Below are positions 341-20,418 of a DNA stretch of 22,402 bases, in pieces. Origin of the DNA: Bdellovibrionota bacterium (GTDB lineage Bacteria; Bdellovibrionota_C; UBA2361; JBGSMV01); assembly GCA_044356455.1 (NCBI GenBank), contig JBIKWF010000068.1:1-22402 (forward strand), written 5' to 3'. The stretch's first letter is position 1. Each line of letters opens with the position of its first letter. The notes beneath the pieces were generated by a model, which made no database searches, was not told the DNA's origin, and worked only from the letters and a program-made list of their open reading frames with translations. The position numbers and the translations under genes were made by a program.

Positions 341-359
341 GGGACAAATTTCCCCTTAG

Positions 360-488
360 GGAATCTTTGAAAAAGCCTACTCTGTGAACTCTGTGCCCTC
401 TGTGGTTGATTTAAATCGTTGAAAAACCACAGAGGACACAGAGATCACAGAGACAGAAAATAGAATATCGAGGTTTTTCAGAGGTTCC
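360..488. mobile_element. MITE-like element family A, copy 1 (129 bp)
   Basis: TIRs GGAATCTTTGAAAAA (360-374) and TTTTTCAGAGGTTCC (474-488) match 13/15. TTAG on both sides (356-359, 489-492). Internal 26/28 inverted repeat 380-407/425-452 with GATTTAAATC in the loop. Confidence 0.8.
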
Positions 489-537
489 TTAGTGTTCTTA
501 GTGGTTGTATTTTAAAACAACCACTGAGACCACGAAG
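488..537. repeat. Stand-alone 9-mer-periodic hairpin (CTTAGTG variant), no TIRs
   Basis: CTTAGTGTTCTTAGTGGTTGT (488-508) pairs 18/21 with ACAACCACTGAGACCACGAAG (517-537). AT-only loop. Confidence 0.7.
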
Positions 538-557
538 GGGAGAGAGGGATTTGTCAT

Positions 558-995
558 ATGCCAGACACAAAACTTTCAGACCAGGACCGCGCCCAGCGAA
601 TCGTCGAACGTATGATGAGTCATGACGGGTTTAGCCGCTGGCTTGGAGTGGTGGTTAAGGAAATTGCGCCAGGGCGCGCGGTCATTGAAATGAAAATTCG
701 AGACGAAATGCTTAATGGCTTTGGGACCTGCCACGGCGGAATCCAGTATTCCCTGGCAGATAGTGCTCTTGCCTTTGCCTCAAATGGGCGCGGGCGAAAG
801 TCGGTAGCTCTTGAGAACGTGATTTCTTACCCGGCCCCTGTGGTGACGGGAGACGTGCTCACCGCCCATGCAGAGGAAGTTTCTCTCGGCAACACCATTG
901 GCACGTACGATATTACTGTGTTCAACCAACATAAACGCAAGGTCGCCCTGTTTCGAGGCAGCGTGTACCGATTACGCGAGGAGTGGGACGTATGA
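558..995 (+). CDS. paaI: Hydroxyphenylacetyl-CoA thioesterase (PaaI, hotdog fold)
   Basis: Motifs MMSHDGFSRWLG and MLNGFGTCHGG..YSLADSALAFASN. GAGGG RBS upstream. paa context. Confidence 0.9.
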   Translation: MPDTKLSDQDRAQRIVERMMSHDGFSRWLGVVVKEIAPGRAVIEMKIRDEMLNGFGTCHGGIQYSLADSALAFASNGRGRKSVALENVISYPAPVVTGDVLTAHAEEVSLGNTIGTYDITVFNQHKRKVALFRGSVYRLREEWDV

Positions 996-2200: not shown

Positions 2201-2213
2201 CTAAGGCCGGCCA

Positions 2214-2825
2214 ATGGCGAACATATTTGAATTCGATGGCGTTAGGCCGGTAATCCATGAGAGCGCCTTTGTTCATCCGAACGCGACGGTTACCGGAAAT
2301 GTAGTGATTGGCCGCAAGGTCTACATTGGACCGGGCGCAGCAATTCGAGGCGATTTTGGCGCCATTGTGATTGAGGATGGCAGCAACGTCCAAGAAAATT
2401 GCACGATTCATATGTTCCCCGGGGTCACGGTTTACTTGAGAGAATCTTCTCATATTGGACATGGCGCAGTGATTCATGGCGCTTGTATTGGGCGGAACAC
2501 TCTCATCGGCATGAATGCGGTGGTAATGGATAATGTAGAAGTGGGAGCAGAGTGCGTCGTGGGGGCGCTTAGCTTTGTTCCCGCGGATATGAAAATCCCC
2601 GACCGAAAGGTAGTGGTTGGAAATCCCGCCAAAATTATCAAAGATGTCACTGATGAAATGGTGAGCTGGAAAACGGAGGGAACGGCTCTCTATCAGAGAC
2701 TCCCTCTCCAGTGCGCGCAGACCTTAAAGCCCTGTGAACCATTGCGTGACCCCGCAGAGCAATCGAAAACGATGCCTGTAGGATATCAGCCGTGGTTTCT
2801 AAAAAAGGAAAATCGCAATGGATGA
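2214..2825 (+). CDS. paaY: PaaY/CaiE-like hexapeptide-repeat (gamma-carbonic anhydrase family) protein
   Basis: Left-handed beta-helix hexapeptides. Motifs RGDFG, NVQENCTIH, HIGHGAVIHG and WKTEGT..YQ.L. paa context. Confidence 0.85.
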   Translation: MANIFEFDGVRPVIHESAFVHPNATVTGNVVIGRKVYIGPGAAIRGDFGAIVIEDGSNVQENCTIHMFPGVTVYLRESSHIGHGAVIHGACIGRNTLIGMNAVVMDNVEVGAECVVGALSFVPADMKIPDRKVVVGNPAKIIKDVTDEMVSWKTEGTALYQRLPLQCAQTLKPCEPLRDPAEQSKTMPVGYQPWFLKKENRNG

Positions 2826-3234
2826 AAGGGAAATTGCCCGCTCGGCGAAAGTTATTGCAGTGGTTGGAATTTCAAATAAACCCGATCGCTCAAGTTTTGG
2901 AGTCGCGGAATATTTGGCAAAGCACGCAGAGATTCTTCCCGTCAACCCCAACCTCAAAGAGTGGCAGGGCCGTCCTTGTTACGGCTCTCTCGCCGAAATC
3001 CCCCAGCAAGAGGTAATTGATATCGTAGATATCTTTCGGCGCTCTGAAGACGTCATGCCCGTGGTCGAAGAGGCGATAGCGCGTGGGAATGTGAAGTGTA
3101 TATGGATGCAGCAGGGGATTGTGAATGAAGCTGCGGCAGAGAAAGCTCGTGCGGCGGGGATGGAGGTGGTGATGGACGCCTGTCTCGCCGTCGTCCATTC
3201 CACCGCGATGCATGGGAAGTCATTCCATAGCTAG
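2818..3234 (+). CDS. CoA-binding protein (YccU-like)
   Basis: Motifs IAVVGISNKPDRSS, PVNP, IDIVDIFR and WMQQG...MDAC. Overlaps the paaY end. Confidence 0.9.
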   Translation: MDEREIARSAKVIAVVGISNKPDRSSFGVAEYLAKHAEILPVNPNLKEWQGRPCYGSLAEIPQQEVIDIVDIFRRSEDVMPVVEEAIARGNVKCIWMQQGIVNEAAAEKARAAGMEVVMDACLAVVHSTAMHGKSFHS

Positions 3235-3327
3235 AACCTCTGAAAAACTTTCATTCTTAAGACACCTCTGTGTACCTCTGTGGTGAAATTCTTCATGAAG
3301 ATTTCACCACAGAGACTCAGAGGTTCC
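3234..3327. mobile_element. MITE-like element family A, copy 2 (short, eroded TIRs)
   Basis: CTAG-AACCTCTGAAAAA at 3231-3247 and TCAGAGGTTCC-CTAG at 3317-3331. Perfect 14-bp stem 3276-3289/3301-3314 around the palindrome CTTCATGAAG. Confidence 0.75.
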
Positions 3328-3447
3328 CTAGATAAAGGAGCGTGAAGTTCACGTGAGTAAGGCGTACTTTGTTACACAAGTAAATTCGTAAAGAAGAAAT
3401 GAAAGGGGAGGTTTAAGGAGGGACTGATTCCGAATCTCTTATGAATT

Positions 3448-5568
3448 CTATAATCCATCTAACACGAGGTACTGTTCCCGCATTTTGAGCTGAAAGGGGG
3501 TTTGTCCCCAGGTAAGTCCTTGGTTGGTTCCATGAAGCTGGGGGAACCTTCCCATGCCATCGGAGGGATCGGTATCCTGAATACAGTGCCCTGGCATGCT
3601 CGAGTCGGGGCCAAAGGTGATGCCGTACTGTGACATGTCGAGCTCGCATTTTGCAGGGATACCTGGGCTCTGTATTCCGGTGCAAATCTGACTATTTGCG
3701 GTAGTGCATGGCTGGCCTGCGTTGTCTCCCCCAAGACAAACGCCACGGCCCGGTGCACAGCTGTCTCCTTGGGTCCATGCCCCCACCTGCAGGAAGCGTT
3801 TCACGTACTGCATGAATGCGGGGGGTTGCCAGGTCTGCTTGAGTGCAGGCATGAGTTCAAGGCCGGTAAACGTCGCCTGCCATTGTCCCGAGGTGCAGCA
3901 GCTTTGGTAATAGGCGCCTGGGATTCGGCCTCCATCAATCGATCCCCCGGGAGCACCAGAAGTCGTTGCGGGATATGGGTCGCGGCACACATTATGCGCA
4001 GTTGGTGAATTGATAGACTGCCAATAATTAAGCTCTGTGCACCCCCAAGGATTTGCTTCCCCATAGAGGGCCATGCCAGTAACGGGGCTAATGTACGTGG
4101 CATCTGTTTCTCCAAATTTCCAGCTCGGCGCATTCGCTAGTGCGTCCATAATGTCCTGCCGCTGGAGCAGGGTACCCGCGAACGCAATCGGTGCAGCACG
4201 GCCGTGCCCATGCCCGCCTGCGGCGTTCCACCCATGACCATCTTCAAGCATGGCGAATAGATCGAGGCCATAGTTAAGAAAGTGGACCATAAGCAGCTTT
4301 TTATCCTCGATGGCGTCATTCAGGAAAAGCCTGAGTATGATCTCCATGTTTCGAGTGGAGATGTCTGCTCCGTACCACGGAGAGGGTTTCGCGCGAGCAC
4401 GAGCATCATGGGCAAAGCAGTGGTCAGTATTTACAGGGGCAATCTGCGCAATCAACGACTGAAACGTTGGTGCCGCTACACTGGAGGGTGGGGGTAGCGA
4501 GGGAAGAAGCTCCCAGTGAATGTCGTTGATGGAAACGAGAGACTTGTCTCCCTTGACATAGGGGGGGCGAAAGTAAATTGCCCCACGTTGCGTGGGAACC
4601 GTGTCAAGGACCGTAAGCACTGCTGCGCTTGAGAGGCATTGGTTGTTCACCGGGTATGAGCAATCGAACGAGGTGTCCGAGATGGCCTTGATAATCGAAT
4701 CCCCCGCCTTCGCACTATAGGGAAGTGCTGGCATCAAGTTTTGGTTATAGATATTGGCCCGATAGTCAAAAGCCTGCTGACCTGGGTGCAGCGATCGACT
4801 GGGATTCACCTCCCACCCGTTGAACCAGCCATATGAAGGGCCGCTCTGAACGGCAGGAAGGATCTCGATAACCTGTACGGTTCCTCCCGGCGCATCTGGG
4901 GCAACCCAATAGTCGCCGTTGGCGAAGGTTCCCGTGCGATAGGGTCTATCAAACACAAAAGTGATGCCCCACTGCGATACTTCCTTTTGTTTTGGATCGC
5001 CCTCACTGCCCTCGGAGGTATCATTCGCGGCACTACATCCTGGATCGCCCGCAATATCAACTAATCCATCAGAGTCATTATCTATACTATCGCTACACTC
5101 TGAAACGATAGGAACACTTTCCTCTGGCGGCGTAGGGGAAGGAGGCGGCGGAGGCGGGGGAGGCGGGGGAAGCGGAGCGGGATCTTCAGGCGGAGCCTGA
5201 AGCTGGCCCCGCAGTTTCATGCAGGCACGTTCAAATTTTCTGAACTGCCTTTTGCTCGGTCTCCTCTTGGGTGCAAGAGACCTGAGGTTCCTCCACACCG
5301 TCTCGCCATTCTTTGTCTGCAAAAGTCCTGGTACCGAGGTAGTGCCATTAGAGTTTACGATGAACAGACAAAAGATTTTTTTCCCCCGGAATTTGTGCTT
5401 GCTCTCAATGGTGGGAAGTGGAGTTGATTTAAGATTGACCTGCTTCGGGGTTTGCTCAGTGTTGGTAGTGTCAGTCCAGGCTCGTGCCGGAATAAATAAG
5501 AGAAGAGAGAAAATGAATGCTAGCCGAAGCGGCAGACAGGGCCACTCAGGATCCACGAGTCTCCTCAT
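3448..5568 (-). CDS. Secreted modular hypothetical protein (signal peptide, basic domain, poly-Pro linker, Cys/Asp-rich motif, large uncharacterised domain)
   Basis: Long ORF; the start is either 5622 or 5568. Hydrophobic LAFIFSLLLFIPARA followed by WTD fits a signal peptide. Contains a P-rich linker, the motif CSDSIDNDSDGLVD..DPGC and many Cys. Confidence 0.8.
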   Translation of the reverse strand: MRRLVDPEWPCLPLRLAFIFSLLLFIPARAWTDTTNTEQTPKQVNLKSTPLPTIESKHKFRGKKIFCLFIVNSNGTTSVPGLLQTKNGETVWRNLRSLAPKRRPSKRQFRKFERACMKLRGQLQAPPEDPAPLPPPPPPPPPPSPTPPEESVPIVSECSDSIDNDSDGLVDIAGDPGCSAANDTSEGSEGDPKQKEVSQWGITFVFDRPYRTGTFANGDYWVAPDAPGGTVQVIEILPAVQSGPSYGWFNGWEVNPSRSLHPGQQAFDYRANIYNQNLMPALPYSAKAGDSIIKAISDTSFDCSYPVNNQCLSSAAVLTVLDTVPTQRGAIYFRPPYVKGDKSLVSINDIHWELLPSLPPPSSVAAPTFQSLIAQIAPVNTDHCFAHDARARAKPSPWYGADISTRNMEIILRLFLNDAIEDKKLLMVHFLNYGLDLFAMLEDGHGWNAAGGHGHGRAAPIAFAGTLLQRQDIMDALANAPSWKFGETDATYISPVTGMALYGEANPWGCTELNYWQSINSPTAHNVCRDPYPATTSGAPGGSIDGGRIPGAYYQSCCTSGQWQATFTGLELMPALKQTWQPPAFMQYVKRFLQVGAWTQGDSCAPGRGVCLGGDNAGQPCTTANSQICTGIQSPGIPAKCELDMSQYGITFGPDSSMPGHCIQDTDPSDGMGRFPQLHGTNQGLTWGQTPFQLKMREQYLVLDGL

Positions 5569-5666
5569 GCCCTTAGAAGACCTGAGAAATTCTCGTACTC
5601 GAAATACCCTGTACAACTGCATAACAGACCACCGCGCAACGACTTTTTAGGCCTCCCTACAAGGGT

Positions 5667-5683
5667 TGCAACTGGCATGCCAA
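5667..5683 (-). promoter_or_regulatory. Sigma-54 (-24/-12) promoter candidate
   Basis: Minus strand reads TTGGCATGCCAGTTGCA, matching YTGGCAC-N5-TTGCW with exact spacing and one mismatch. Directly upstream of the secreted-protein gene. Confidence 0.7.
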
Positions 5684-5988
5684 TAAATGTGCTTTCGACA
5701 CAGTCTTTGGTGACTGCTTCTTGGTTCCCTGTTTTAGGTCTGTAAGAGTTCAGTAACTCCAGGCAGGACAATTGGTTAGTGAGGCGAGGTTTCTGTAGGG
5801 CAGGTCTTTGCGGCATCCTCAAGCTCGCCTGAGCGCTAGGAAGTTCAGGTTGGAGACCCCCGCGACATTTTGCGTAGCAAGAACCCGTGGTCCAAGGATG
5901 TTTTAAAATCTTTGCCTTGGAATCTCTAAAGGTCTCTAGAATATAGCGATTGTATTGCACGGAGGGACGGATCTGAGTTCCCGTAGTT

Positions 5989-6396
5989 CTACAGGGGAGG
6001 AACGTGCGCCTCTGATGCGTGATGCTCCTTTTTCTTTACAAGCTGCGCCACGTAACCAAGCAGCTCCTTAGGATCTATGGGCTTTGGTAGAAATCTATCC
6101 ACGCCATTTTTGAGCAAATCAGTTATCTCGCTCAGTTTAATAATTCCAGAGACAAGAATGACGGGTATCTTAGAGAGCGCCTCATTCTTTCTGATATGCC
6201 CAACAAGTGCTCTGCCGCTCATGTCAGGCATTTCGTAGTCAGTAATAAGAAGGTCAAAGCTTGGATTCTCTTCGAGTATGCGCAGCGCAAACTCTGCACA
6301 CGAACAGCATACGACAGAAGCGCCGGTTCGCTCCACGATAGATGCGAGAATCTGTCGTGCAATTACTTCGTCATCAACAATCAGAACCTTTGTCAT
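5989..6396 (-). CDS. Single-domain response regulator (CheY-like receiver)
   Basis: Motifs VLIVDDE, LLITDYEMPDMSG and FLPKP. ATG at 6396 with GGAGG RBS. Follows cheB. Confidence 0.88.
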   Translation of the reverse strand: MTKVLIVDDEVIARQILASIVERTGASVVCCSCAEFALRILEENPSFDLLITDYEMPDMSGRALVGHIRKNEALSKIPVILVSGIIKLSEITDLLKNGVDRFLPKPIDPKELLGYVAQLVKKKEHHASEAHVPPL

Positions 6397-6418
6397 AACT
6401 ATTCCTCCATGTGCACTA

Positions 6419-7933
<1,515 letters not shown>

Positions 7934-7941
<8 letters not shown>

Positions 7942-8326
7942 GGCTTGGAATCTCCCCCAATACTGCTTCTATTGTTTCGGCGAGCTGTTCAGGGCTTACG
8001 GGTTTGCGCAGATAATGCCGTATGCCGGCCGCCTTGAGTTCATCAATTCGGTCCTGAGCTCCTTCGGTGGATACAATGACTACTGGAAGATTTTTGTAGT
8101 CGTCTGAGGCGCGTATAGTCCGAACAAACTCAATGCCGTTCATGACTGGCATATTGATGTCGAGGAACACGACATCAATCCAGCCTTCTTTGAGTTTATC
8201 GAGCGCGATACGGCCGTTCTCTGCTTCGACCATTGTTCCGACGGGAACTCCCGCGAGCGCAAAGGTCTTCTTCAGAACCTTTCTTACGACGCTCGAATCA
8301 TCGACGAGCAAAACGTTATAGCTCAT
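7934..8326 (-). CDS. cheY: Chemotaxis response regulator CheY
   Basis: Motifs VLLVDDS, FLDINMPVMNG, VSTEG and RKP. GAGGAG RBS. Confidence 0.88.
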
Positions 8327-8342
8327 AGTTCATCTCCTCGGC

Positions 8343-8822
8343 CTAAAGCTCAATTACCTGCCCTTTGCATTTAAGAAGTGTGCGGCCAGTCGCGATTTCA
8401 AGTGAAAGTGTGCGACTGACTGATTCTCCAAGATGTTCAGCTTTCATCAGAAGGTTGTTTTTCCACAAAATCTTGCGCAGCACCGTGATGTTCTTTTTCC
8501 CAATTTCGAACAAATTGTTTTCGTCGTTAATATTCGCTCCGCCAGCTGCGACGATGGTCAGTCTTTCAAGGTGGGCTCCTGCGGTTGCAAGCTCTTCAAG
8601 CATCTTCACAATTCCGGTGTCCACATACATGAAGGGATTCTTCTTGGCTTTTTCAGGATCTGATTTTGACATGGGGAGGAGGCAGTGAATCATCGCGCCT
8701 ACGTGAGATTCTCGGTCGTACATTGCAACACCAACGCACGAGCCAAGATTGGTGGCAAGCAGCAGGTCACCTTCGTTGCGACTGAGCTTCATCTCAGCGA
8801 TTCCGACAAATTGCTGTGTCAT
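8343..8822 (-). CDS. cheD: Chemoreceptor glutamine deamidase CheD
   Basis: Motifs LGSCVGV, HCLLP, Y.DTG and IGKKN. Confidence 0.93.
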   Translation of the reverse strand: MTQQFVGIAEMKLSRNEGDLLLATNLGSCVGVAMYDRESHVGAMIHCLLPMSKSDPEKAKKNPFMYVDTGIVKMLEELATAGAHLERLTIVAAGGANINDENNLFEIGKKNITVLRKILWKNNLLMKAEHLGESVSRTLSLEIATGRTLLKCKGQVIEL

Positions 8823-9628: not shown

Positions 9629-9637
9629 GCGGTTCCT

Positions 9638-12226
9638 TTAGGCATGAGAATCTGATGCAGTATCCCTTGCGTTCAATTGCGTTCCACGATTGCCTGATGG
9701 CGCACGGTATACCTCGCGTGCAAGCTCAATCAGCGTGCGCACATCTAAAATGAGAGAGATGTCGCCATCTGGCATGATCGCACAGCCTGCGGTGCCCTTT
9801 TGATCGGCGAACATGGGCCCGAGATTTTTAATCACAGTCGAGTACTCTCCGAGAATGGCGTCTACGGCAAGTGCCACGAACTCAGTGCCGTTCTCCACTA
9901 CGACGAGCGCTCCCTCTGAAAGGTCTTTGAGAGGTGATTCAATTCCATAGAGATGGCTTAGTCTGAACACGGGGAGATACTTCTCGCGAAAGGCGAATGT
10001 CTCTCCGCGGTCTAGGGTTGTATTGATAGTGTCTCTTGTTGGTCTCACAAACTCTACAATGGAGAGGCTTGGAATGATGAAGTTCTCCTTGCCTACTCGA
10101 ACTTGAATACCGTCGATAATCGCAAGAGTGAGAGGGAGCTCAATCGTAAAAGTGGAGCCGCGCCCTACCTCAGAGCGAATACGAATTCTTCCTCGCAAGG
10201 ATTCGACGTTTCGCCTTACTACATCCATTCCTACGCCGCGCCCCGAGATGTCGGTGACTACTGCCGCGGTAGAGAAGCCTGCGGCAAAGATTAGTTGGTA
10301 TGCTTCTTCGTTAGTCAATCGCTGGCTACGAGTAATAACTCCTTTCTCAATTGCCTTTGCAATCAACTTTTCAGGGTCGAGTCCCTTGCCGTCGTCGCTA
10401 ATTTCAATGTGTATGCTGCCGCCAGCATGATACGCCGCCAATTTTACTCTGCCCGCACGTGGCTTTCCTGCCGCCTCCCTTACTTCTGGGCTTTCAATGC
10501 CATGGTCAATTGCATTACGAACCATGTGCATGAGTGGATCGGCAAGCTTATCAATGAGATTCCGGTCTAGTTCGGTATCTTCTCCGTCTACCTGAAAATC
10601 AAGCTCCTTTCCGAGTTTCTTACTCGCATCCCACACGAGACGCGACATTTTCTGGAAGAGTCCCTTTATGGGGACTAAGCGCATGGACATCCCGATGTCT
10701 TGAAGGTCTCTGCCAAACTTCTCCACCCGGTGCGTCGTATTCATCACCACCTGGTCGCCTTCGAGATGTTCGCGGCACTGCCGAACCAGCATAGAGGAAT
10801 AAATCACCATCTCACCGATGGAATCGATCAACTGGTCAAGGCGAGCGGTATCAACTTTAACAAAGTTTTTAACCTGGAGTTTGTCGCCCTTATCAGCGCT
10901 TGCTTCAGAGGCAGCCGCAGAGGCCGCACGTTCAGGTGCGGGAGAATGTTCTTGCGTTGGCGTGGCGCGTGAAGGGGCAACTGCCTCTAAAGAAGGAGCG
11001 ACAGAGACTGGCGCTAGTTTCACTTCACCATGTGCGTAGCTGTGAAGGTCTCCGAGGAACTCCTGAGCTTGGGCGCTCGTGGTCATCGCAACATTCGCCG
11101 AGGCGCATTCTTTGGCGCGCTTCATTACCTCTTTTTGAACATCGATATAGGTAAGAAGGAGTGCCTTAAGTTTTTCATCGAGGGTGCGTTTCCCGTCGCG
11201 CACCTCATGCAGCATGTTTTCTAGTAGGTGTGAGCACTTGCTCATCTCAATAAGGCTAAAATAAGCAGAGCCGCCTTTTATGGAGTGCACCGCGCGAAAG
11301 ATTGCATCTACGGAATCTTTCGAGTATTCGCCAGAAGAATCAAGAATGATGCTTTCGACTGCACCTAGGTGTTCTTCTGCCTCAGCGGCGAATTCAATTA
11401 AGATGTCGATCTCGCCAGTGACTTTGTACGTCTCCGGAAGCCGCTCTCCCAAATGTAAAGAAGAAGGAGCCGCGGCAACCGCGGGGGCGGGCGTAGGGGA
11501 GGGCGAGGGGGTAGATTGCTTAGGTGCAGGAGCCTTTGCCTCCACCGAGGAAGTCGGGGGCAAGCTGAGGCCCGTGAGAAAAGCTTCTGAAGAGCATACG
11601 ACTGCTTTGCCGTCTTTGAGAGACTGCATGCAGTTCACGACCCATTCTTTGAAAGAGATGAGTTGCGAAATGAGTGGTCCGGCGCCGTGTTCCACCACTA
11701 AATCTTCAACCGCGTGGCAGGCGCGCTCTATACCAAGGAGACCGACTGAGCCTGCGTCTCCCTTTAGATTATGAAGGTATCGTTTTACTGACTTGGTGAG
11801 CTCTGCGGCGTCTTCCTCACCTGAAGTTGAGGCAACGAGAGAGCCCTCGAATTCCTCAATCAGAAGTGAATGGGATTCTATGAATTCAGTTATGAATGAA
11901 GGATCAAGAGACTCTGCAAAATCGGCGCTTGAGCGTTCGGAGCCGTCTTCGAGAGGTGCGGTGCAAGATGCCAGTGCGCTCTCATCTCCGGCAGTGAATG
12001 CATTGAGCTTGGAAGCAAGGTCATTTGCTGCGCCTAGAGGATCAGAGCCTTTCATCTGTTCGAGAGTCGAAGCGCATGCTGCTGCCACAAGAGGAGCATC
12101 GGTGGCTAAGGAATAAATGGCCGAGACAGTTTCCTGGACCATCGTTACGCTCGAGGCGTCGTCTACTGATGCCATAACGAGGAGAAGTGCGAGCTCCTCA
12201 ATTTTTGTTTTCAGTGCTTCATTCAT
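9638..12226 (-). CDS. cheA: Chemotaxis histidine kinase CheA with two Hpt domains
   Basis: Hpt motifs HNLKG and HSIKG, dimerisation domain (VKVDTARLDQL), HATPase (HMVRNAIDHGIE, DDGKG, SGRGVGMDVV) and a CheW-like C-terminus. Start 12226 is preferred because it has a GAGGG RBS and lies downstream of the sigma-28-like promoter. Confidence 0.95.
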   Translation of the reverse strand: MNEALKTKIEELALLLVMASVDDASSVTMVQETVSAIYSLATDAPLVAAACASTLEQMKGSDPLGAANDLASKLNAFTAGDESALASCTAPLEDGSERSSADFAESLDPSFITEFIESHSLLIEEFEGSLVASTSGEEDAAELTKSVKRYLHNLKGDAGSVGLLGIERACHAVEDLVVEHGAGPLISQLISFKEWVVNCMQSLKDGKAVVCSSEAFLTGLSLPPTSSVEAKAPAPKQSTPSPSPTPAPAVAAAPSSLHLGERLPETYKVTGEIDILIEFAAEAEEHLGAVESIILDSSGEYSKDSVDAIFRAVHSIKGGSAYFSLIEMSKCSHLLENMLHEVRDGKRTLDEKLKALLLTYIDVQKEVMKRAKECASANVAMTTSAQAQEFLGDLHSYAHGEVKLAPVSVAPSLEAVAPSRATPTQEHSPAPERAASAAASEASADKGDKLQVKNFVKVDTARLDQLIDSIGEMVIYSSMLVRQCREHLEGDQVVMNTTHRVEKFGRDLQDIGMSMRLVPIKGLFQKMSRLVWDASKKLGKELDFQVDGEDTELDRNLIDKLADPLMHMVRNAIDHGIESPEVREAAGKPRAGRVKLAAYHAGGSIHIEISDDGKGLDPEKLIAKAIEKGVITRSQRLTNEEAYQLIFAAGFSTAAVVTDISGRGVGMDVVRRNVESLRGRIRIRSEVGRGSTFTIELPLTLAIIDGIQVRVGKENFIIPSLSIVEFVRPTRDTINTTLDRGETFAFREKYLPVFRLSHLYGIESPLKDLSEGALVVVENGTEFVALAVDAILGEYSTVIKNLGPMFADQKGTAGCAIMPDGDISLILDVRTLIELAREVYRAPSGNRGTQLNARDTASDSHA

Positions 12227-12258
12227 GGCGTGCCCTCGGAGAAATGATCTCTCTTGGG

Positions 12259-12286
12259 ACATCGAAAGTTTGAGAGAACTTCTTAA
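12259..12286 (-). promoter_or_regulatory. Sigma-28 (FliA)-like promoter for the cheA operon
   Basis: Minus strand reads TTAAG-N15-TTCGATGT, against consensus TAAA-N15-GCCGATAA. Confidence 0.5.
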
Positions 12287-12333
12287 GGGGATTAGGTTGT
12301 TTATATCGAATAAACCTTGGCGTTTCGGTGCTT

Positions 12334-12423
12334 CTTCTGTCTTCTGTCTTCTGTCAGTCCTCTGTGGTTTTTCAACGATTTAAAGCAACCATAGAGGTAC
12401 AGAGTTCACAGGGCAGGCTTTTT
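12334..12423. mobile_element. MITE-like element family A, copy 3 (degenerate, TIRs mostly lost) with heptamer repeat
   Basis: 12357-12423 aligns with the reverse complement of copy 1 (GTCCTCTGTGGTTTTTCAACGATTTAAA.CAACCA.AGAGG..CAGAGTTCACAG.G.AGGCTTTTT). It is preceded by (CTTCTGT)x3 at 12334-12354. Confidence 0.75.
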
Positions 12424-12445
12424 AGGGGGGAGTAGATTTATCCCG

Positions 12446-12473
12446 TCAAGTGATTTGCTGATTTCGCCGTTAG
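12446..12473 (+). promoter_or_regulatory. Sigma-28 (FliA)-like promoter for mcp-cheW
   Basis: TCAAG-N15-GCCGTTAG, ending 45 bp upstream of the mcp ATG. Confidence 0.55.
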
Positions 12474-12518
12474 CTCTTCTAAGCAGGCGGGACGTTCGCG
12501 CCTCATGGGGAGACGAAA

Positions 12519-14609
12519 ATGGTAGGAAATCAAGGCCTTAAGGCTCAGCTCATCATTTCTTTTCTGGCAATTGGCCTTTTACCGGCCATTGCGCTGTACC
12601 TCAATACCCAGCACATGAGCGGTGAGGCTCTGAATCAGATTAATAACCAGTCGAAAACCGTTGCGGTTGAAATTGCCGATAAGATCGATCGCAACGTATT
12701 CGAGCGGTACGGCGATGTGCAGGCCTTTGGATATAACACGGTCGCACTTGAGCCATCGCATTGGTACAAAGCTGGGGCAAGTGAAAACCCCATTGTAGTG
12801 GCCATGAACAACTACATCTTGGCCTACGGGATTTATTACCTATCTGTTCTCGTCGATCTCGACGGCAAAGTCATTGCAGCGAGTGATGTAGACAAAGCCG
12901 GAAAACCTTTAGAATCAGCTTGGCTCTACGAAAAGAATTTTTCCGGATCTGAATGGTTTAAAGACTCTCTCGAAGGGAAATTCTTTACTGCCAATGGTTA
13001 TTTGAGCGGAACGGTCGTCGAAGATGTGTATGTAGACCCCGATATCAAGAAGATATACGGGGACGAAGGGCTCACGCTTGGGTTCTCTGCGCCTGTGAAA
13101 GATCCTTCAGGAAAGACGATTGGCGTGTGGAAGAATTTTGCGCGCTTCGATCTCGTAGAGTCAATTCTTCTTGATTCCTGGGCGAATCTTGAGCGCCAGG
13201 GCTGGAAGAACTTTCAAATATCGCTTGTCGATAAGTCAGGCCAGCTTCTCGTTGATTATGATCCATCTGGCGCTGGTAGCCGAGATGTCAAACGCAATAT
13301 GGACCAGATTCTCAAAGCGAACTGGGCCGAAGAAGATTATTTCCCCGCGAAGAGCGCTGTTTTAGGAGAGCAGGGTGTTTGGTCAGGACCTCGCCGAGCG
13401 GGTGGAGAGGACCAAATTGTAGGTTTCGCCAAGATGCGCGGGGCCATGGGATACGTGGGAATGCCATGGTCAGTGCTCGTGCGGGTGCCTGAAGCGGTTT
13501 TGCATGCGCCAGTTGATGATGCGCAAGTCATCTCGATGTGGGTTTTTGGCGTCGCGCTCTTAGCGATTGCCGGGGTAATCTGGGGCACGTTGCTTAGTGT
13601 CGTGAAACCGATACAAGGAATCATTCGGGACTTATCTCAAGGATCTCGCGAACTGAGATCCGCTGCGACTCAGGTGGCCTCGAGTTCTCAGTCCCTTGCG
13701 CAGGGAGCAACCGAGCAAGCGGCTTCACTTGAAGAGACCGCTGCGACCATAGAAGAAATTTCTTCTACTGGGAAGCAAACCGCATCGAACTCAAGCGAAG
13801 CGTTTAGAATCTCTGACTCCGTGCTTAGCTCCTCGCACGAGAGTACCAAAGCAATGGAGGAGATGGCTCGTGCCATTGAGAAGATTAAAGCTTCATCTGA
13901 CGAGACAGCACAAATCATTAAAACGATCGATGAGATTGCGTTTCAAACCAATCTTCTCGCGCTCAACGCGGCAGTTGAAGCGGCCCGTGCCGGTGATGCT
14001 GGCAAGGGGTTTGCCGTCGTAGCTGAAGAGGTGCGAAATCTCGCCCAGAGGAGTGCAGGTGCGGCGAAGGATACTGCGGAGAAGATTAAGCAAAGCAAGA
14101 CTCTTGCGGATCAGGGCGTTCTGGTAAGCTCGCAAGTTGGTTCCGCTCTTACCAAAATTAGAGAGCATGCGGTGCATTCAGCTGACCTCGCAAAGGAGAT
14201 TGCTGCTTCCAGCAAGGAGCAATCGGTTGCCATAGATCAAGTAAACTCGGCAGTTGGCGAGCTCGATAAAGTCACCCAGCAGAACTCCGCAGCCGCGGAA
14301 GAATCCTCGGCGGCGAGTGAGGAGCTTACCGCCCAAGCTGCTACGCTAGATGAAGTGGTAGTGGAGCTTAGCCGGCTTGTATACGGCCGAGGTGGAAGAG
14401 CCGCGGAGCCGCCTCCCGCGGCAAAAGCAAGATCTCGTTCCACTGCGCCAGCGAAGAAGCAGACAGAGATTATTGAACTAAATGTTGAAGCGCCAGGGCA
14501 CGCAACCCCGACGCGTAGGCCGGCATCAAGTGGACATAGGCCATCCCCTAAGCCCTCGGCGCCCTCGGACGTGATTCCACTGGATGATAATGATTTCCAA
14601 GGTTTCTGA
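12519..14609 (+). CDS. Methyl-accepting chemotaxis protein with a large periplasmic dCache-like domain and C-terminal pentapeptide
   Basis: Two TM helices flank a roughly 310-aa periplasmic region. Signalling hairpin [32 protein letters not shown] methylation helix, Pro-rich tail ending DFQGF. Confidence 0.95.
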
Positions 14610-14622
14610 TTAACGAGGTGGT

Positions 14623-15129
14623 ATGTCATTTGATACAGCACAGTCGGCGATCACGAAGTCCGTATACGGAAAGTTTTTGACCTTTATAGTCTCCAAGGAG
14701 CGCTATGGGATCGACATCCTCATAGTTCAAGAGATCATTGGTGTCACTCACATTACGACCGTTCCGCGCTGCCCCGACTATATGAAGGGCGTAATCAACC
14801 TGCGGGGGAAAATTATTCCCGTCATCGATATCAGGCTCAAATTCGGAATCGAGCCGATCCCTTACGACGAGAGAACCTGCATCATCGTGGTGCACCTCTC
14901 TAAAGATGGTCAAACGGTTCCTGTCGGTGTGATTGTAGATACCGTGCTAGAAGTCATCGACTTCGCGGAGTCAGATGTCGAGCCAGCTCCGAATTATGGA
15001 CAGCAGCTTGAAACAAGTTTTGTATTGGGAATAGGTAAGCGAGAGTCGGCGATCAATATCCTCATCGATATTGAACGCATTATCTCAGTCGCAGATAAGA
15101 CCAAATTAGCTGAAGTATCTCACTCGTAG
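14623..15129 (+). CDS. cheW: Chemotaxis coupling protein CheW
   Basis: Motifs KFLTF, VQEII, GVINLRGKIIPVID and GVIVDTVLEV. GAGGTGG RBS. Confidence 0.95.
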   Translation: MSFDTAQSAITKSVYGKFLTFIVSKERYGIDILIVQEIIGVTHITTVPRCPDYMKGVINLRGKIIPVIDIRLKFGIEPIPYDERTCIIVVHLSKDGQTVPVGVIVDTVLEVIDFAESDVEPAPNYGQQLETSFVLGIGKRESAINILIDIERIISVADKTKLAEVSHS

Positions 15130-15180
15130 CCCGTTCGGACCGAGTAAACGTTGTACCCATTGTGCCTCATTGGAGACTCT

Positions 15181-16353
15181 ATGAGTAAAGTTCGCTCGTG
15201 CGCGTTAGTGTTAAGCCTTGTTCTTGCGATAGCACCCCATGCCTCTGCTGAGGCGCCTGATTCTGCGGGAGCCGAGCCTGTGCCTGCTCCTGTATCGCCT
15301 GTGGAGAGCCTGTTAAAGGATCTTAAGGTATCAGGGTATTTGGATGCTACGTATAATTACAACGTGAACCAGCCATCTGATAACCGCAATCAAGTGCGGG
15401 TATTCGATAAAGAAAGCGACACGTTCAAGCTTCAGGCCGTAAAACTTACGGTGCAGAAGGAAGTGTCTGCCGAGAGCCGAGTGGGATTCCGCGCTGATGT
15501 TATTGCCGGCGACGATGCCGAAGTAATTCATGCAGCCGGCCTCGGAGAAAGCTCGGATAGTTTTGACCTTGAGCAAGCCTATGCAGAAGTTTCGCTCGGC
15601 CTTGGTGGGATAGGTATGAACGACCTTAATCTAAAGGTCGGAAAGTATGTTACGTTCGCGGGAGCCGAGGTAATTGAATCCAAGGACAATTGGAATATTT
15701 CTCGTGGTATCCTCTTTGGTTATGCGATTCCTTTTACCCATACCGGCTTAAGGACAACCTACACCCTTGACAATGGGTGGGACATTGCTCTTGGCGTGAA
15801 TAACGGCTGGGACGTAGCGGATGATAATAATAGCGCCAAGACCTTTGAGGGCCATGTGGGCTTTAACGGTATTGAGCTTCCCGGAGATTCTTCTCTCACG
15901 ATATCTGCCAATACCTATATTGGTTCGGAGTCGGCAGACAATGACGGAGCGACACGTAGCTTGGCCGATACGGTGGTGACTTATAAGACGCCTTGGAAGT
16001 GGCTCACCTTTGTCTATAACTTTGATTATGCGAATGAGGATGAGGCTCTTGAAGATGGTTCATCAGCTTCTTGGTATGGTCATGCAGGCTACGCTCGTTT
16101 TGATATCAACGATGAGTGGTCGTTTAGCCTACGCGGCGAGTATATGAACGATGATGATGGAGTCAGGGTAAATTCTGGAACTCCTGCTGATTACAAGGAA
16201 CTTACCGGTACTGTTGAGTATCGTCCTTGGAAGAATCTTATCACTCGCTTTGAGTACCGAGCTGACCGGGCATCGGAAGAAGTTTTCAACGACGAGGATG
16301 GAACTACTGATACCCAGAGCACTTTTGCTGGGCAGATGATAGTAACCTTCTAG
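15181..16353 (+). CDS. Outer-membrane beta-barrel porin (putative BBP2/OmpL-like type)
   Basis: Signal peptide (..LVLAIAPHASA). Motifs SGYLDATYNYN, GKYVTFAGAEVIES..NWN.SR, PFTHTG and NNGWD. Amphipathic strands and terminal Phe. GGAG RBS before ATG 15181. Confidence 0.85.
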   Translation: MSKVRSCALVLSLVLAIAPHASAEAPDSAGAEPVPAPVSPVESLLKDLKVSGYLDATYNYNVNQPSDNRNQVRVFDKESDTFKLQAVKLTVQKEVSAESRVGFRADVIAGDDAEVIHAAGLGESSDSFDLEQAYAEVSLGLGGIGMNDLNLKVGKYVTFAGAEVIESKDNWNISRGILFGYAIPFTHTGLRTTYTLDNGWDIALGVNNGWDVADDNNSAKTFEGHVGFNGIELPGDSSLTISANTYIGSESADNDGATRSLADTVVTYKTPWKWLTFVYNFDYANEDEALEDGSSASWYGHAGYARFDINDEWSFSLRGEYMNDDDGVRVNSGTPADYKELTGTVEYRPWKNLITRFEYRADRASEEVFNDEDGTTDTQSTFAGQMIVTF

Positions 16354-16360
16354 AACCTCG

Positions 16361-16492
16361 GGAGCCTCTGAAAAACCCAGAATTTGTCTTTCCTCTGCGC
16401 TGTTTTCCCTCCGCGTACTCAGCGTACTCCGCGTTATGTGAAAAGTATTATATAACGCGGAGTACGCTGAGGTGGAGTTTTTCAGAAGCTCC
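16361..16492. mobile_element. MITE-like element family A, copy 4 (132 bp, different internal cassette)
   Basis: TIRs GGAGCCTCTGAAAAA (16361-16375) and TTTTTCAGAAGCTCC (16478-16492) match 14/15. Flanks are CTCG/CTAG. Perfect 20-bp stem 16418-16437/16452-16471. Confidence 0.8.
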
Positions 16493-16507
16493 CTAGATAC
16501 GGTTAGG

Positions 16508-16560
16508 AAACTCTCCCCCTTAGTGGTCTCAAGAATAGGCCGCTAAGGGGGAGTTTTTTT
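16508..16560 (+). terminator. Intrinsic terminator candidate for mcp-cheW-porin
   Basis: CTCCCCCTTAGTGGTCT pairs with AGGCCGCTAAGGGGGAG (with G-U pairs) and is followed by T7. Confidence 0.6.
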
Positions 16561-16625
16561 GTCGCTATATCGAGTCTGCCCATGAACGGACTCGGCACCA
16601 TGCGCGGAGATGATTGTGCGGTCAG

Positions 16626-16748
16626 GGAGCCTCTTAAAAACCTAGATACTTTATTTTCTTCCCTCGGTGATCTCTGTGTTCTCTGTGGTTTTTTCCAACA
16701 ATTTAAATTAAACACCGAGAGCACCGAGTAGACTTTTTCAGAGATTTC
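16626..16748. mobile_element. MITE-like element family A, copy 5 (123 bp)
   Basis: TIRs GGAGCCTCTTAAAAA and TTTTTCAGAGATTTC. Flanks TCAG/TTAG. Colinear along its length with the reverse complement of copy 1 but one 9-mer shorter. ATTTAAAT at 16701-16708. Confidence 0.8.
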
Positions 16749-17921
16749 TTAGGATTTCAAAGCAAGTTCCACGAGCGTTTCGAAATGCTCAGTCATCGGG
16801 AACATGTCAAAGGGTTGCACGCGCGAGAGGGAGAATGACGAACTCAGAACTCGCAGATCCCTAACGAGCGATTCAGCGTTGCAGCTTGAATAAATCACCG
16901 TCTTGGGCTCCATGGCCTTAAGCGCTGCAATCGTAGCAGGAGAGAGCCCTCTTCGGGGTGGGTTTACCACTACCGCATCGTAGGTGCCTCGAAGACTTGC
17001 TCCCTTTCGAAGAAAAGCATCCACATCCAACGCTTCAAAGGAGAGGTGCGTAAAGGAATTCAGCTTTGCTGCTTCTTGGGCATCCCCAATTGCTGAGCTG
17101 CTGAGCTCAACGCCATGACCACTTTCGAGGTGAGCTGCGGCAAAAAGCGAGAATGCACCTACTCCGCAAAAAAGGTCGAGAAGGCGGCGACTCCCTGACT
17201 CTCTTATCCAAGCTGCTGCAGTGCAATAAAGCTTTTCGGCCACATTTGAAGTAACTTGGGAGAAGCTCTGCGGGGAGTAGAGTAGATGCACGCCTCCTAG
17301 GGTTTCAGTAAGACGGAGTGCTTCGCTGAGAATTTCTTCGCGCTCTCCTTCAACGATAGCCTTGGGGTGCGGTTGAAAATTGAGTGAGGTTACCTTCAAG
17401 TTTGGCACGTGCGATTGTAGCGAAGCGCAGAATGCGCGGGCGCGGTCTGCGTGCAGGGTACTTCTTAGCACCAGTCGCAGCATAACCTCTCCAGTGGATT
17501 CGCTGCCGCGTAGAAGCACATATTTGATCTCACCAGAGCGGCGCTGCACATCGTAGGGGGGAATATGGTGGGCAGAGATTCCCTTAAGGCACATCGCCGC
17601 AAGCTCATTAAGGATTGGTAAGTGCAGAGGGCACTCAAGAACTGGAATAACCACTCCTTCGCGGTTTGGAAAACCAAGCAGGGGAGATGCGGAAGTACCC
17701 CCCACTGCCAGCTTTGCTTTATTGCGCGAGCCGTAGTCTTTGGCTGAGGTAGCCATAGGGAGTAGGGGAATGGTTCCAACCCCCGCAAGTAGCGCCGCAA
17801 GCCTAGACTGTTTCTGGGCAATTTGATCGGCGTAGGCAAGCGGGAGGAGCGTACAGGACTTGCACGTGCTTTGCGCATGATAGGCGCACCCCGTAGGCCG
17901 TATTTTCGATTGCTCAGTCAT
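16749..17921 (-). CDS. rlmC: 23S rRNA (uracil-C5)-methyltransferase, RlmC-like
   Basis: N-terminal C-x7-C-x2-C Fe-S motif, no TRAM domain. Motifs SRNKAK, PQSFSQ, DLFCGVG, VNPPRRG, YSSCN and FDMFPMTEHFE. Confidence 0.85.
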   Translation of the reverse strand: MTEQSKIRPTGCAYHAQSTCKSCTLLPLAYADQIAQKQSRLAALLAGVGTIPLLPMATSAKDYGSRNKAKLAVGGTSASPLLGFPNREGVVIPVLECPLHLPILNELAAMCLKGISAHHIPPYDVQRRSGEIKYVLLRGSESTGEVMLRLVLRSTLHADRARAFCASLQSHVPNLKVTSLNFQPHPKAIVEGEREEILSEALRLTETLGGVHLLYSPQSFSQVTSNVAEKLYCTAAAWIRESGSRRLLDLFCGVGAFSLFAAAHLESGHGVELSSSAIGDAQEAAKLNSFTHLSFEALDVDAFLRKGASLRGTYDAVVVNPPRRGLSPATIAALKAMEPKTVIYSSCNAESLVRDLRVLSSSFSLSRVQPFDMFPMTEHFETLVELALKS

Positions 17922-17986
17922 GTACTCTTCTTTTGCCTTTTTTATCCTTCACGCTAGTATCCCCATCGTATCTCAAGGAGAGTCCG

Positions 17987-20026
17987 ATGAGAATTCAAAG
18001 CTTTGCAGAAGGAACCTGGGTTGAAGGAAAGGGAACGGGGACGGTGGTGTATCATGCCGTAACGGGTGAGCCTGTCGGGGAAGTTTCAAGCACAGGCCTT
18101 AATTTCAAGTCGATGCTTGATTATGGACGAAGAGTTGGTGGCAAAAACCTGCGCGCGCTCACGTTCCACGAGCGGGCCCTGAAGCTCAAGGCGCTGGCCA
18201 AATACCTCACCGAGCGCAAAGACGAATTTTATAAAGTCTCTGCCGCGACCGGGGCAACAAAACTTGATTCATGGATAGACATTGAGGGCGGGATCGGTAC
18301 TTTTTTTGTGTATGCGAGCAAAGGCAGAAAGGAACTTCCCAATGAAAACTTTCTTGCCGAGGGCGACACAGAGTTGATTTCTAAAAATGGCACCTTTTTG
18401 GGGCGCCACTTGTGCGTACCGCTTGAAGGCGTGGCAACCCATATCAATGCCTTTAATTTCCCTTGCTGGGGAATGCTTGAGAAGCTTGCCCCAACGCTCT
18501 TAGCGGGCATGCCAGCCATAGTTAAACCAGCCTCCCTTACCTGTTACCTAACTGAGAGCATGGTGAAGGCCATCATAGAGTCTGGCATTCTACCCGAGGG
18601 GGCGCTTCAGCTTATATGCGGAAGCACAGGAGACCTTTTTGACCACTTGACCTGCCAAGATGTGGTTACTTTTACGGGTTCTGCGGAGACAGGAAAGAAA
18701 CTACGTGAGCACCCCTCCATTGTGCAGCAGTCAATTCGCTTCAATATGGAGGCGGATTCTCTTAATTGTTCAATTCTAGGCCCGGACGCAAAACCAGGAA
18801 CTGAGGAGTTCGGTTTATTTATTAAGGAAGTTGCGCGTGAAATGACGGTTAAGTCGGGTCAAAAATGTACCGCGATTCGCCGTACCATTGTGCCTGATGA
18901 CATGGTGAAGGATGTGCTTGATGCGCTCAAAAAGCGGCTGGATGGCGTAAAAATCGGAGACCCCGCAGCCGAAGGCGTCACCATGGGACCTCTCGCGGGC
19001 AAAGCTCAGGTGAAAGAAGTTCTGGCGCGTGTGAGTGAGCTCCAGAAAGCGGCAGAAGTAGTTTACGGCGATGTGAAGAATTTCTCTGTCGTAGCTGCCG
19101 ATAAGGAGCGCGGCGCTTTTTGTCCCTCCATGCTGCTTTACTGTGATAAGCCCATGCAGCAGCGCGCGCCGCATGACATCGAGGCTTTTGGACCCGTCAA
19201 TACCGTCATGCCCTATAAATCCATTGATGAAGCGATTGAGCTTGCACGTATGGGGAAGGGCAGTCTCGTGGGGTCGCTCTTTACTGGGGATGATAAAGTT
19301 GCCAGAGAAGTAGTGTTTGGTGTGGCGCCGTATCATGGACGCGTCATGGTGATGAATCGCCATGCGGCCAAAGAATCGACTGGGCATGGCTCGCCCCTTC
19401 CGCACTTGGTTCACGGCGGCCCGGGACGCGCCGGCGGTGGGGAAGAGATGGGAGGCATGCGCTCGGTGCTGCACTATATGCAGCGCACGGCGATACAAGG
19501 ATCTCCCACAACCTTGGGCCATATTTGTAACGATTGGGTTAAGGGCGGAGAGCAGACTCATGACCGTGTGCATCCGTTCCGTAAGTACTTTGAGGAGCTC
19601 GAGATTGGCGAGACTTTGATTACGCATAGGCGCACCGTTACGGAAGCGGATATTGTCAATTTCGCGGGCATCAGTGGCGATCATTTCTATGCCCATGTGG
19701 ACGAAATTGGCGCAAAGGATTCCATCTTTGGACGTAGAGTGGCGCATGGCTACTTTGTCCTTTCTGCTGCTGCAGGGTTGTTCGTCGACCCCGCGCCAGG
19801 TCCCGTGCTTGCGAACTATGGACTTGAGCGGCTTAGATTCATCAAGCCCGTATACGCGGGCGACACTATTCATGTGCGCATTACGGTGAAGCAGAAGACT
19901 TCAAAGGAGACTCCCGAGGGCACGATTCCACAGGGTGTCGTAGCGTGGGACGTTGAGGTCTTTAACCAGGCGAATGAGGGGGTCGCGGTGTACACCATTC
20001 TTACCTTGGTGCGGCGGAAGAATTAG
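17987..20026 (+). CDS. paaZ: Bifunctional oxepin-CoA hydrolase / aldehyde dehydrogenase PaaZ
   Basis: ALDH domain (HINAFNFPCWGMLEK, TFTGSA, MEADSLN, GQKCTAIRR, ESTGHGSPLP) fused to a MaoC hotdog domain (HPFRKYFEEL, GDHFYAH, VAHGYF). AAGGAG RBS before ATG 17987. Confidence 0.96.
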   Translation: MRIQSFAEGTWVEGKGTGTVVYHAVTGEPVGEVSSTGLNFKSMLDYGRRVGGKNLRALTFHERALKLKALAKYLTERKDEFYKVSAATGATKLDSWIDIEGGIGTFFVYASKGRKELPNENFLAEGDTELISKNGTFLGRHLCVPLEGVATHINAFNFPCWGMLEKLAPTLLAGMPAIVKPASLTCYLTESMVKAIIESGILPEGALQLICGSTGDLFDHLTCQDVVTFTGSAETGKKLREHPSIVQQSIRFNMEADSLNCSILGPDAKPGTEEFGLFIKEVAREMTVKSGQKCTAIRRTIVPDDMVKDVLDALKKRLDGVKIGDPAAEGVTMGPLAGKAQVKEVLARVSELQKAAEVVYGDVKNFSVVAADKERGAFCPSMLLYCDKPMQQRAPHDIEAFGPVNTVMPYKSIDEAIELARMGKGSLVGSLFTGDDKVAREVVFGVAPYHGRVMVMNRHAAKESTGHGSPLPHLVHGGPGRAGGGEEMGGMRSVLHYMQRTAIQGSPTTLGHICNDWVKGGEQTHDRVHPFRKYFEELEIGETLITHRRTVTEADIVNFAGISGDHFYAHVDEIGAKDSIFGRRVAHGYFVLSAAAGLFVDPAPGPVLANYGLERLRFIKPVYAGDTIHVRITVKQKTSKETPEGTIPQGVVAWDVEVFNQANEGVAVYTILTLVRRKN

Positions 20027-20042
20027 ACGGCAAATTCCATAA

Positions 20043-20169
20043 GGAATCTCTGAAAAAACTCCAATCTTAATACACCTCTGTGTACCTCCGTGTCCTCTGT
20101 GGTTTTGCAACAATTTAAATCAAACACAGAGGGCACAGAGTTCACAGAGCAGACTTTTTCGGAGGTTCC
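20043..20169. mobile_element. MITE-like element family A, copy 6 (127 bp)
   Basis: TIRs GGAATCTCTGAAAAA and TTTTTCGGAGGTTCC. Flanks ATAA/CTAG. Three CTCTGTG-type units per arm. ATTTAAAT at 20113-20120. Confidence 0.8.
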
Positions 20170-20189
20170 CTAGCAATCCAAGCGTGTTC

Positions 20190-20220
20190 CTTTGTGTCCC
20201 TTGCGTCCTTTGTGGTGAAA
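20190..20220. repeat. Unpaired 9-mer-periodic arm (CTTTGTG variant)
   Basis: CTTTGTGTC CCTTGCGTC CTTTGTGGTGAAA. Shares the TGTGGTGAAA ending of the copy 2 arm. Confidence 0.6.
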
Positions 20221-20242
20221 ACATTCTGCTACTCTATCTCTA

Positions 20243-20418
20243 AGGTAGCGGCCCAGTTCCGGCTTCGCCAGGAGGCGACGGCGAGATAGGCCCCGCGGCA
20301 TTTGTTTCGGCACGCCGGGGCGCGCGTCGCGCCGTCGCCTACTGGCAGAGGCGGAACGGCGCGCCCTACCTAGTCGCGTAGCATTGGAGGGGTAGGGCGC
20401 CGCGTCCCCGCGGTGCCG
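20243..20418. repeat. GC-rich GTAG-type REP/REPIN-like palindromic cluster
   Basis: AGGTAG...CTACCT ends (20243-20371) enclose an imperfect long hairpin that includes a perfect 11-bp stem (20273-20283/20330-20340). It is followed by GGTAG-GGCGCCGCG-TCCC-CGCGGTGCC (20391-20417). Confidence 0.65.

Follow-up and report, generated by a model that had tools for sequence, protein, structure and literature searches.

The locus studied here raises two questions: how a short non-coding element came to be repeated throughout a bacterial genome, and where the hairpin that it carries came from. It is a 22,402-nucleotide stretch of DNA (the window), contig C25 of a 4.70-Mb, 93% complete assembly of a Bdellovibrionota bacterium, and the metagenome runs containing it come mainly from lake water. 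Among phenylacetate genes, a chemotaxis cluster, and an RlmC-like gene, the window holds six copies of an element in which short terminal inverted repeats (TIRs) enclose a hairpin whose arms are tandem 9-mers. The original prediction, made from the letters of the window, had taken them for a highly amplified non-autonomous family of the IS5 type and possibly for two nested systems, a TIR shell and an independently propagating hairpin cassette. [quoted passage not shown]

An IS5-type shell in hundreds of copies

All six copies lie where they had been predicted, and the window shows 15 TIR-like matches where 5.1 would be expected, a number that none of 100 shuffles reached. Genome-wide, there are 280 occurrences of the exact 15-bp end (949 allowing two mismatches), and ends paired 100 to 160 bp apart delimit 317 elements of a ~129-bp MITE family, so the copies are not restricted to the window. 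The modal length is 120 to 139 bp (216 of 303 pairs), and the interior is non-coding. A profile search returned 581 loci, or 1.4% of the genome, of which 366 have two ends, 163 have one, and 52 have none, the last being largely cross-matches to a hairpin type, E, described below. The 317 elements split into subfamilies A (154), B (76), C (24), and D (5), with 4 C/D, 7 mixed, 20 ambiguous, and 27 unassigned; these four have unrelated loops and linkers, and the linkers from end to arm are fixed within each subfamily. Frequent shuffling of A and B halves was rejected, with 7 mixed versus 230 pure elements (the 20 ambiguous ones excluded). Median identity to the consensus is 91% for A and 82% for B and 286 of 287 copies are distinct, which argues that the amplification is not very recent. 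Among 123 other genomes of the phylum, the exact end with its flank was found in 5, namely, 73 times in genome G019, 3 times in a genome of the same genus, and once in each of three others.

The target site is of the YTAR type. Identical 4-bp flanks border 145 of the 317 elements compared with 59 (maximum, 80) when the flanks are shuffled, and where both flanks are YTAR, the duplication is identical in 143 of 188 pairs. An empty site was recovered for copy 4 (Table 1): in run X16, a contig from a related strain, about 94% identical to the window, joins position 16355 to 16492, skipping 136 bases that equal the 132-bp copy plus exactly one CTAG (one contig, depth 2). In the same run, copy 5 is represented by its two ends and copy 6 by its left half. 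A possible cargo swap at copy 5, where the ends align and the interior does not, was set aside because decay of copy 5 explains the alignment equally well. Scanning metagenomes with the RlmC-like protein for empty sites gave distant loci only (26 to 50% identity), which were unusable, and the element is absent from the orthologous paa regions of genomes G001 and G003, which at 65 to 72% identity are too far for exact empty sites.

As predicted, no transposase was found among the 11 long open reading frames (ORFs) of the window that were scanned. Intact elements with the same end that do encode one occur in other bacteria. A GTDB search by exact end plus flank yielded at least 115 stretches, 80 of which were analyzed, and loci L091, L095, and L097 hold elements of 1150 to 1163 bp that share with the MITEs the identical 15-bp left end, a matching right end, and identical YTAR flanks and, unlike the non-coding MITEs, encode a transposase of about 316 to 319 amino acids. 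Both elements scanned, L091 and L097, exceed the IS5 model NF033581 with 341 and 324 bits (cut-off, 140). In the genome of the window itself (G000), NF033581 matches one C-terminal transposase fragment below the cut-off, on contig C113, followed by a 67-bp double TIR, and PF05598 matches nothing. The sole PF01609 match in the genome is a seemingly intact IS4-type element with unrelated ends (L001:1042-2480), rejected as the cognate transposase. In two IS5 remnants, L044:184-1064 and C113:43119-43185 here, the ends are paired-TIR units of about 65 bp, which could be the raw material for empty shells; a remnant in genome G033 carries a doubled end of this kind on both sides, and cargo-less shells of 34 to 67 bp exist.

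MITEs are usually described as internal deletions of a parent insertion sequence (IS). A blastn search with the L044 remnant found the C113 fragment only and no likeness to the MITE interiors; being unlike IS5 interior DNA, these interiors are not plain internal deletions. The shell itself is an ordinary IS5-group MITE, and it was probably spread in trans by an IS5 transposase. It closely resembles MITEPsy1 of Pseudomonas syringae (PMC3189936), which has nearly the same ends (GGAAGGTCTGAAAAAGCC / GTATCCTCTGAAAAAGCC), duplicates a 4-bp target (CTAG or YTAA), lacks coding capacity, was shown to transpose, and has a proposed parent, ISPsy2, of the IS5 family. MITEPsy1 measures 100 nt and has 6 copies, compared with about 129 nt and more than 300 full copies here, and the present family differs in having at least four subfamilies with unrelated interiors made of 9-mer arms shared with the flanks of a nuclease gene, the comparison with MITEPsy1 covering ends, target, and length alone.

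Probable source of the interior hairpins

The 9-mer arms have a source of their own. The genome carries three full-length GxxExxY genes (PF13366, TIGR04256), and inverted 9-mer arms bracket all three, the 5' arm often being read in frame. In relatives, arms stand on both sides of 8 of the 9 near-complete GxxExxY genes examined (from 17 matches), and five genes in two unrelated genomes have, as judged by eye, tandem-word arms made of other words on one or both sides. Each subfamily matches the arms on both sides of different genes, A/B those of L002 and L209, C those of L211 and L214, and D those of L004, over 29 to 44 bases that include the stem ends. The MITE places the 3' arm ahead of the 5' arm, tail to head, the reverse of a gene-deleted unit and the form found at the junction of two tandem units. 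Among the 30 arm-bounded intervals listed, matched arm pairs bound GxxExxY genes only. At L209 in G019, a GxxExxY gene lies between two near-identical tail-to-head hairpins, with an ATG in the loop, resembling a tandem junction. Doublets that lack a gene but keep its orientation occur as well, some of them having conserved ends (148-bp elements, CTAG duplicated in 3 of 4). In G000, doublets F, D1, and D2 make up at least three further multi-copy elements of 117 to 160 bp with outward 9-mer arms and conserved ends of their own; clear CTAG duplication was seen among them in D1 only.

A hairpin search made blind to the ends found 417 inward hairpins in the genome compared with 0 to 1 in shuffled genomes. 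Of the 352 hairpins of types A to D, 283 have two TIRs, 56 have one, and 13 have none, these 13 being by appearance mostly E-type, decayed, or chance matches, whereas 47 of 65 E-type hairpins are shell-free. The A to D cassettes do not spread alone here, contrary to the predicted independent propagation of the cassette, and only the sister type E is mostly shell-free. In free E hairpins, own arms pair at 14.5 of 16 positions versus 13.6 when arms are swapped (maximum, 14.3 in 3000 swaps; n = 27 of 47 after filtering), whereas shell-borne B arms score 14.0 either way (n = 21) and unoriented A likewise shows no excess, a contrast that is suggestive; the same test in G019 covered 2 hairpins and was uninformative.

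Ends and cargo are modular and mix across genomes. In G001, the same ends enclose E-like arms. A 384-kb sample of G019 (about 8% of the genome, picked in part because it held known ends) contains 11 paired elements in which these ends enclose an unrelated interior without a 9-mer hairpin, 9 of them being 180 bp long; of its 16 hairpins, 15 are not bordered by these ends. Eleven loci of G019 have the hairpin within another shell (TACWCTGTNAAC, with CTAG duplicated), which in three G033 loci encloses an unrelated 134-bp interior. One G019 element, L202:15392-15530, combines the left end of this MITE family and a 9-mer hairpin with the right end of the other G019 shell. A third G019 shell was suspected and dropped, the search pattern being too loose. 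Across the 80 GTDB loci, a partner end lies within 400 bp in 46, with identical flanks in 30, while 20 are cut off and 10 are partnerless; the 37 elements longer than 60 bp represent 27 interior families, none with the 9-mer cassette. Several of these interiors start with a CGTC or TGTC tag, as described for REP-like repeats (REP, repetitive extragenic palindrome) in PMC3733652. One such palindrome has 69 copies in the unrelated genome G126, of which 9 have an exact end no more than 150 bp away and the others do not. That MITEs sharing ends alone may differ in interior agrees with PMC11602168. In the literature surveyed, mostly non-subscription papers with supplements and ISfinder excluded, we found no paper describing 9-mer arms at GxxExxY genes or MITEs carrying such arms and none stating that MITE interiors come from other repeat families.

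We propose a model in which the arms would at first have been dispersed in the form of free palindromes, the state in which type E still spreads, from free arm doublets that may have arisen from GxxExxY units. On at least three occasions in this lineage (A/B, C, and D), IS5 ends would then have come to flank an arm doublet, after which a transposase needing the ends only could have amplified the composite in trans, the captured arms being copied passively along with the shell. The direction from arms into shells, and not the reverse, is suggested by the wider spread of the arms. Repeated capture of the interiors from GxxExxY repeat arms appears likely from the arm matches. The prediction of two nested systems stands in that the arms can be traced to a separate source and are also seen in other shells.

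Nevertheless, several observations weigh against this model. We saw no capture intermediate, and E arms receive no excess of insertions (4 of 126 non-coding sites, 3.2%, versus a 2.4% background). The empty site of copy 4 comes from that single contig of depth 2, and no intact IS5 transposase was found in the 93% complete assembly. The upstream arm of a GxxExxY gene best matches its own downstream arm in just 6 of 11 loci, with one tie. The count in G126 took exact ends only. Oriented shell-borne A arms show a small own-arm excess of their own (22.2 versus 22.0 of 25, beyond all 2000 swaps), and sublineages left in the arm-swap tests make the contrast between free and captured hairpins suggestive only.

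The closest competitor to repeated capture is that the hairpin cassette is itself mobile and enters small IS5 shells already in place, the GxxExxY nuclease moving it in the way that the REP-associated tyrosine transposase (RAYT) is presumed to move REP doublets forming hairpins (REPINs). Complete shell-free E hairpins with matched arms, matched arm pairs around GxxExxY genes only, the cargo-less shells, and the occurrence of one hairpin type in two unrelated shells would all fit such mobility. However, the A to D cassettes are almost never free, their fixed linkers are as expected after a single capture followed by amplification, no clear duplication borders the free E hairpins (longest direct repeat, 3.8 versus 3.5 ± 0.13 shuffled), free hairpins yielded no empty site, and the function of PF13366 is listed as unknown in PMC3424549, so that we judge a mobile cassette distinctly unlikely. 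That the GxxExxY nuclease spreads the free E hairpins is a guess, and a rather doubtful one. Alternatively, one ordinary MITE family might have seen its hairpin drift into several 9-mer words, its likeness to GxxExxY arms being convergence. The ends common to all subfamilies, the similar lengths, words differing by one to three bases, and a TIR that itself contains CTCTG are compatible with drift, but the match of each subfamily to a different arm set up to the stem ends, the unrelated loops and linkers, and similar hairpins in a shell with unrelated ends make it very unlikely.

A last possibility concerns a benefit to the host, because the insertions favor gene 3' ends. By crude ORF calls, 139 rebuilt empty sites comprise 33 stop codons, 93 intergenic sites, and 13 coding sites, the stop codons thus accounting for 24% against a YTAR background of 3.0% overall and 9.3% in non-coding DNA. 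Convergent gaps are favored (60 of 209, 29%, versus 19% of gap YTAR) and divergent gaps avoided (25 of 209, 12%, versus 27%). This bias is due in part to the presence of TAA or TAG in YTAR and likely also to selection against hits in genes and promoters. A word resembling the site of integration host factor (IHF), by a consensus with one mismatch, occurs in 90 of 137 A loops and in 6 of 57 B loops versus 3.7 expected; the A loops favor an IHF role kept by the host, and the single inherited origin of the word in A and its lack of enrichment in B weigh against one. Orientation in tandem gaps shows no clear bias (A, 48 versus 33; B, 16 versus 14), and compensatory change is little (A, 11 versus 3.9 expected; B, 12 versus 5.9; kinship among copies ignored), strong compensatory evolution of shell-borne arms not being seen. 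That the host keeps the family as a transcript-end or nucleoid element (terminator, mRNA stabilizer, or IHF site) by selection on the hairpin would suit the 3'-end bias and the A-loop word but is extremely unlikely given these results and a same-genus genome with three exact ends only.

The six copies and their surroundings

The copies of the window illustrate insertion, decay, and nesting (Table 1). All are intergenic, as predicted, with the qualification that two sit on stop codons: the left CTAG of copy 2 contains the TAG stop of ORF 2818-3234, and the TTAG beside copy 5 contains the stop codon of the RlmC-like gene. The predicted TTAG or CTAG bounds are exact duplications for copies 1 (TTAG/TTAG) and 2 (CTAG/CTAG) and hold with one mismatch for copies 4 (CTCG/CTAG) and 5 (TCAG/TTAG), but do not match in copy 6 (ATAA/CTAG) and are decayed in copy 3, which is real and degenerate as announced and extends more widely than the 12357-12423 first assigned to it. 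A long hairpin had been predicted in all copies; folding is strong in copies 1, 2, 4, and 6 (z, -5.3 to -10.5) but weak in copies 5 (z, -2.9) and 3 (z, -1.9; 10 of 200 shuffles equally good). The predicted loop sequence ATTTAAAT is present in copies 1, 5, and 6 and altered in copy 3, and belongs to subfamily A only. No Rfam model matched at its gathering score, generic hairpin matches to microRNA models being all below threshold.

TABLE 1 Positions of the repeat-family features, counted from the first nucleotide of the window
Position	Strand	Feature	Score or remark
356..359	+	Left target duplication TTAG of copy 1, inside the first 9-mer of an interrupted E-type hairpin	
360..488	+	Copy 1, subfamily A MITE, 129 bp	Profile score 138 bits; folding z -8.3
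489..540	+	Right TTAG (489-492) leading into shell-free E-type hairpin, CTTAGTG words	Folding z -5.7
3231..3331	-	Copy 2, subfamily B, internal deletion; element 3235-3327 between two CTAG	
12308..12428 (about)	-	Copy 3, decayed full-length subfamily A, eroded ends	Profile score 61 bits
16357..16496	-	Copy 4 of subfamily C, with CTCCGCG words; 132-bp element at 16361-16492	Folding z -10.5
16513..16553	+	Short E-type hairpin then T run, terminator-like, downstream of gene 15151-16353	Weak
16622..16752	-	Copy 5, subfamily A minus one 9-mer; element 16626-16748	
20043..20169	-	Copy 6, B-type half plus A-type half (A/B chimera)	
20170..20234	-	CTAG with half of an outward doublet element of type F	

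Copy 1 runs from its first TIR through three CTCTGTG words to an AT-rich loop, and from there through three CACAGAG words and an A-rich linker to its second TIR. It lies within the TTAG of an E hairpin, and its removal restores one whole E hairpin from 352-359 and 489-540. In copy 2, the left TIR lacks its first two G, and the inner portion of the right TIR is gone. Copy 6 lies within the CTAG of an F doublet whose second half is missing on its far side; its two halves meet in the common word CCTCTGTGG, and no partner half for the chimera was found. The chimeric structure, unmatched flanks, and half F doublet fit recombination between two copies or an assembly error. The terminator-like call at 16513..16553 is weak, 1 such site being found versus 0.8 expected in shuffles.

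The window also contains a second, unrelated MITE at 21965-22073 (109 bp, 18-bp ends, CTAG on both sides, no 9-mer arms), which has 145 paired matches genome-wide (both strands counted), 95 of them with identical flanks. Two long GC-rich hairpins at 20251-20417 are REP-like in appearance, and a stretch at 22281-22402, ending at the contig edge, starts with GTGCG and weakly matches a group II intron domain (RF02003, 31.9 bits; threshold, 49). Two minus-strand ORFs are without an assigned NCBIfam family: that at 3448-5622 (724 amino acids) has a proline run, a weak match to an acidic double-disulfide repeat, and no family above the cut-off, and that at 20488-21930 (480 amino acids) has no match. 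Between paaY and paaZ, the block 3234-17921 holds the chemotaxis cluster and other genes, copy 2 lying near its left edge; the same gap holds other genes in G001 and almost none in G003.

Related repeat systems and significance

The hairpins resemble REPINs, and their association with a gene resembles that of REPs with RAYTs: inverted arms surround a spacer, both doublet orientations occur, hundreds of copies are intergenic, and the arms flank a short gene for a DNA-cutting protein, features found in PMC3337134 and PMC3733652. One REPIN doublet orientation has been proposed in the former to derive from the ends of two neighboring doublets. Unlike REPs and REPINs, the present arms are tandem 9-mers, have no GTAG or CGTC tag in their consensus, and are not palindromic singly; most hairpin copies lie inside IS5 ends, and the gene flanked encodes a PD-(D/E)XK protein instead of an HUH tyrosine transposase. 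No RAYT was linked to the arms, three weak PF01797 matches, the flanks of which were not read directly, lying on contigs that are absent from the 30 arm-bounded intervals. The nesting of copies 1 and 6 in other repeats is reminiscent of ISs that target REPs, and the AT-rich center between arms recalls MITEs and bacterial interspersed mosaic elements with IHF sites, both known from PMC3184786, IHF binding being putative here; unlike with REP-targeting ISs, the palindrome is carried within transposon ends and amplified, and arm insertion is not enriched. The expectation that the composite was undescribed holds for the arms and cargo in the literature surveyed but not for the shell, so close to MITEPsy1: the shell is not new, whereas the cargo is unusual and traceable.

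By analogy, GxxExxY (PDDEXK_3) and its tandem-word arms might form an undescribed mobile counterpart of RAYT and REP, in which a PD-(D/E)XK enzyme seeds free palindromes throughout the genome and the ends of IS-type MITEs routinely recruit palindromes of this sort (the present arms, CGTC-type repeats, and others) as prefabricated cores, a broader view that we hold only tentatively and regard as rather unlikely. If it were true, MITE interiors would as a rule be borrowed from other repeat systems, and palindromes without a transposase of their own would spread by hitch-hiking in IS5 shells.

Our study points to separate origins of the ends and the interior as a concrete route by which MITE interiors and their hairpins may arise. 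The same capture would offer a possible route for the spread of palindromic repeats without a dedicated transposase, a matter left open for the CGTC repeats in PMC3733652. Moreover, the widespread and uncharacterized GxxExxY nuclease family gains a specific candidate DNA substrate in the 9-mer arms.

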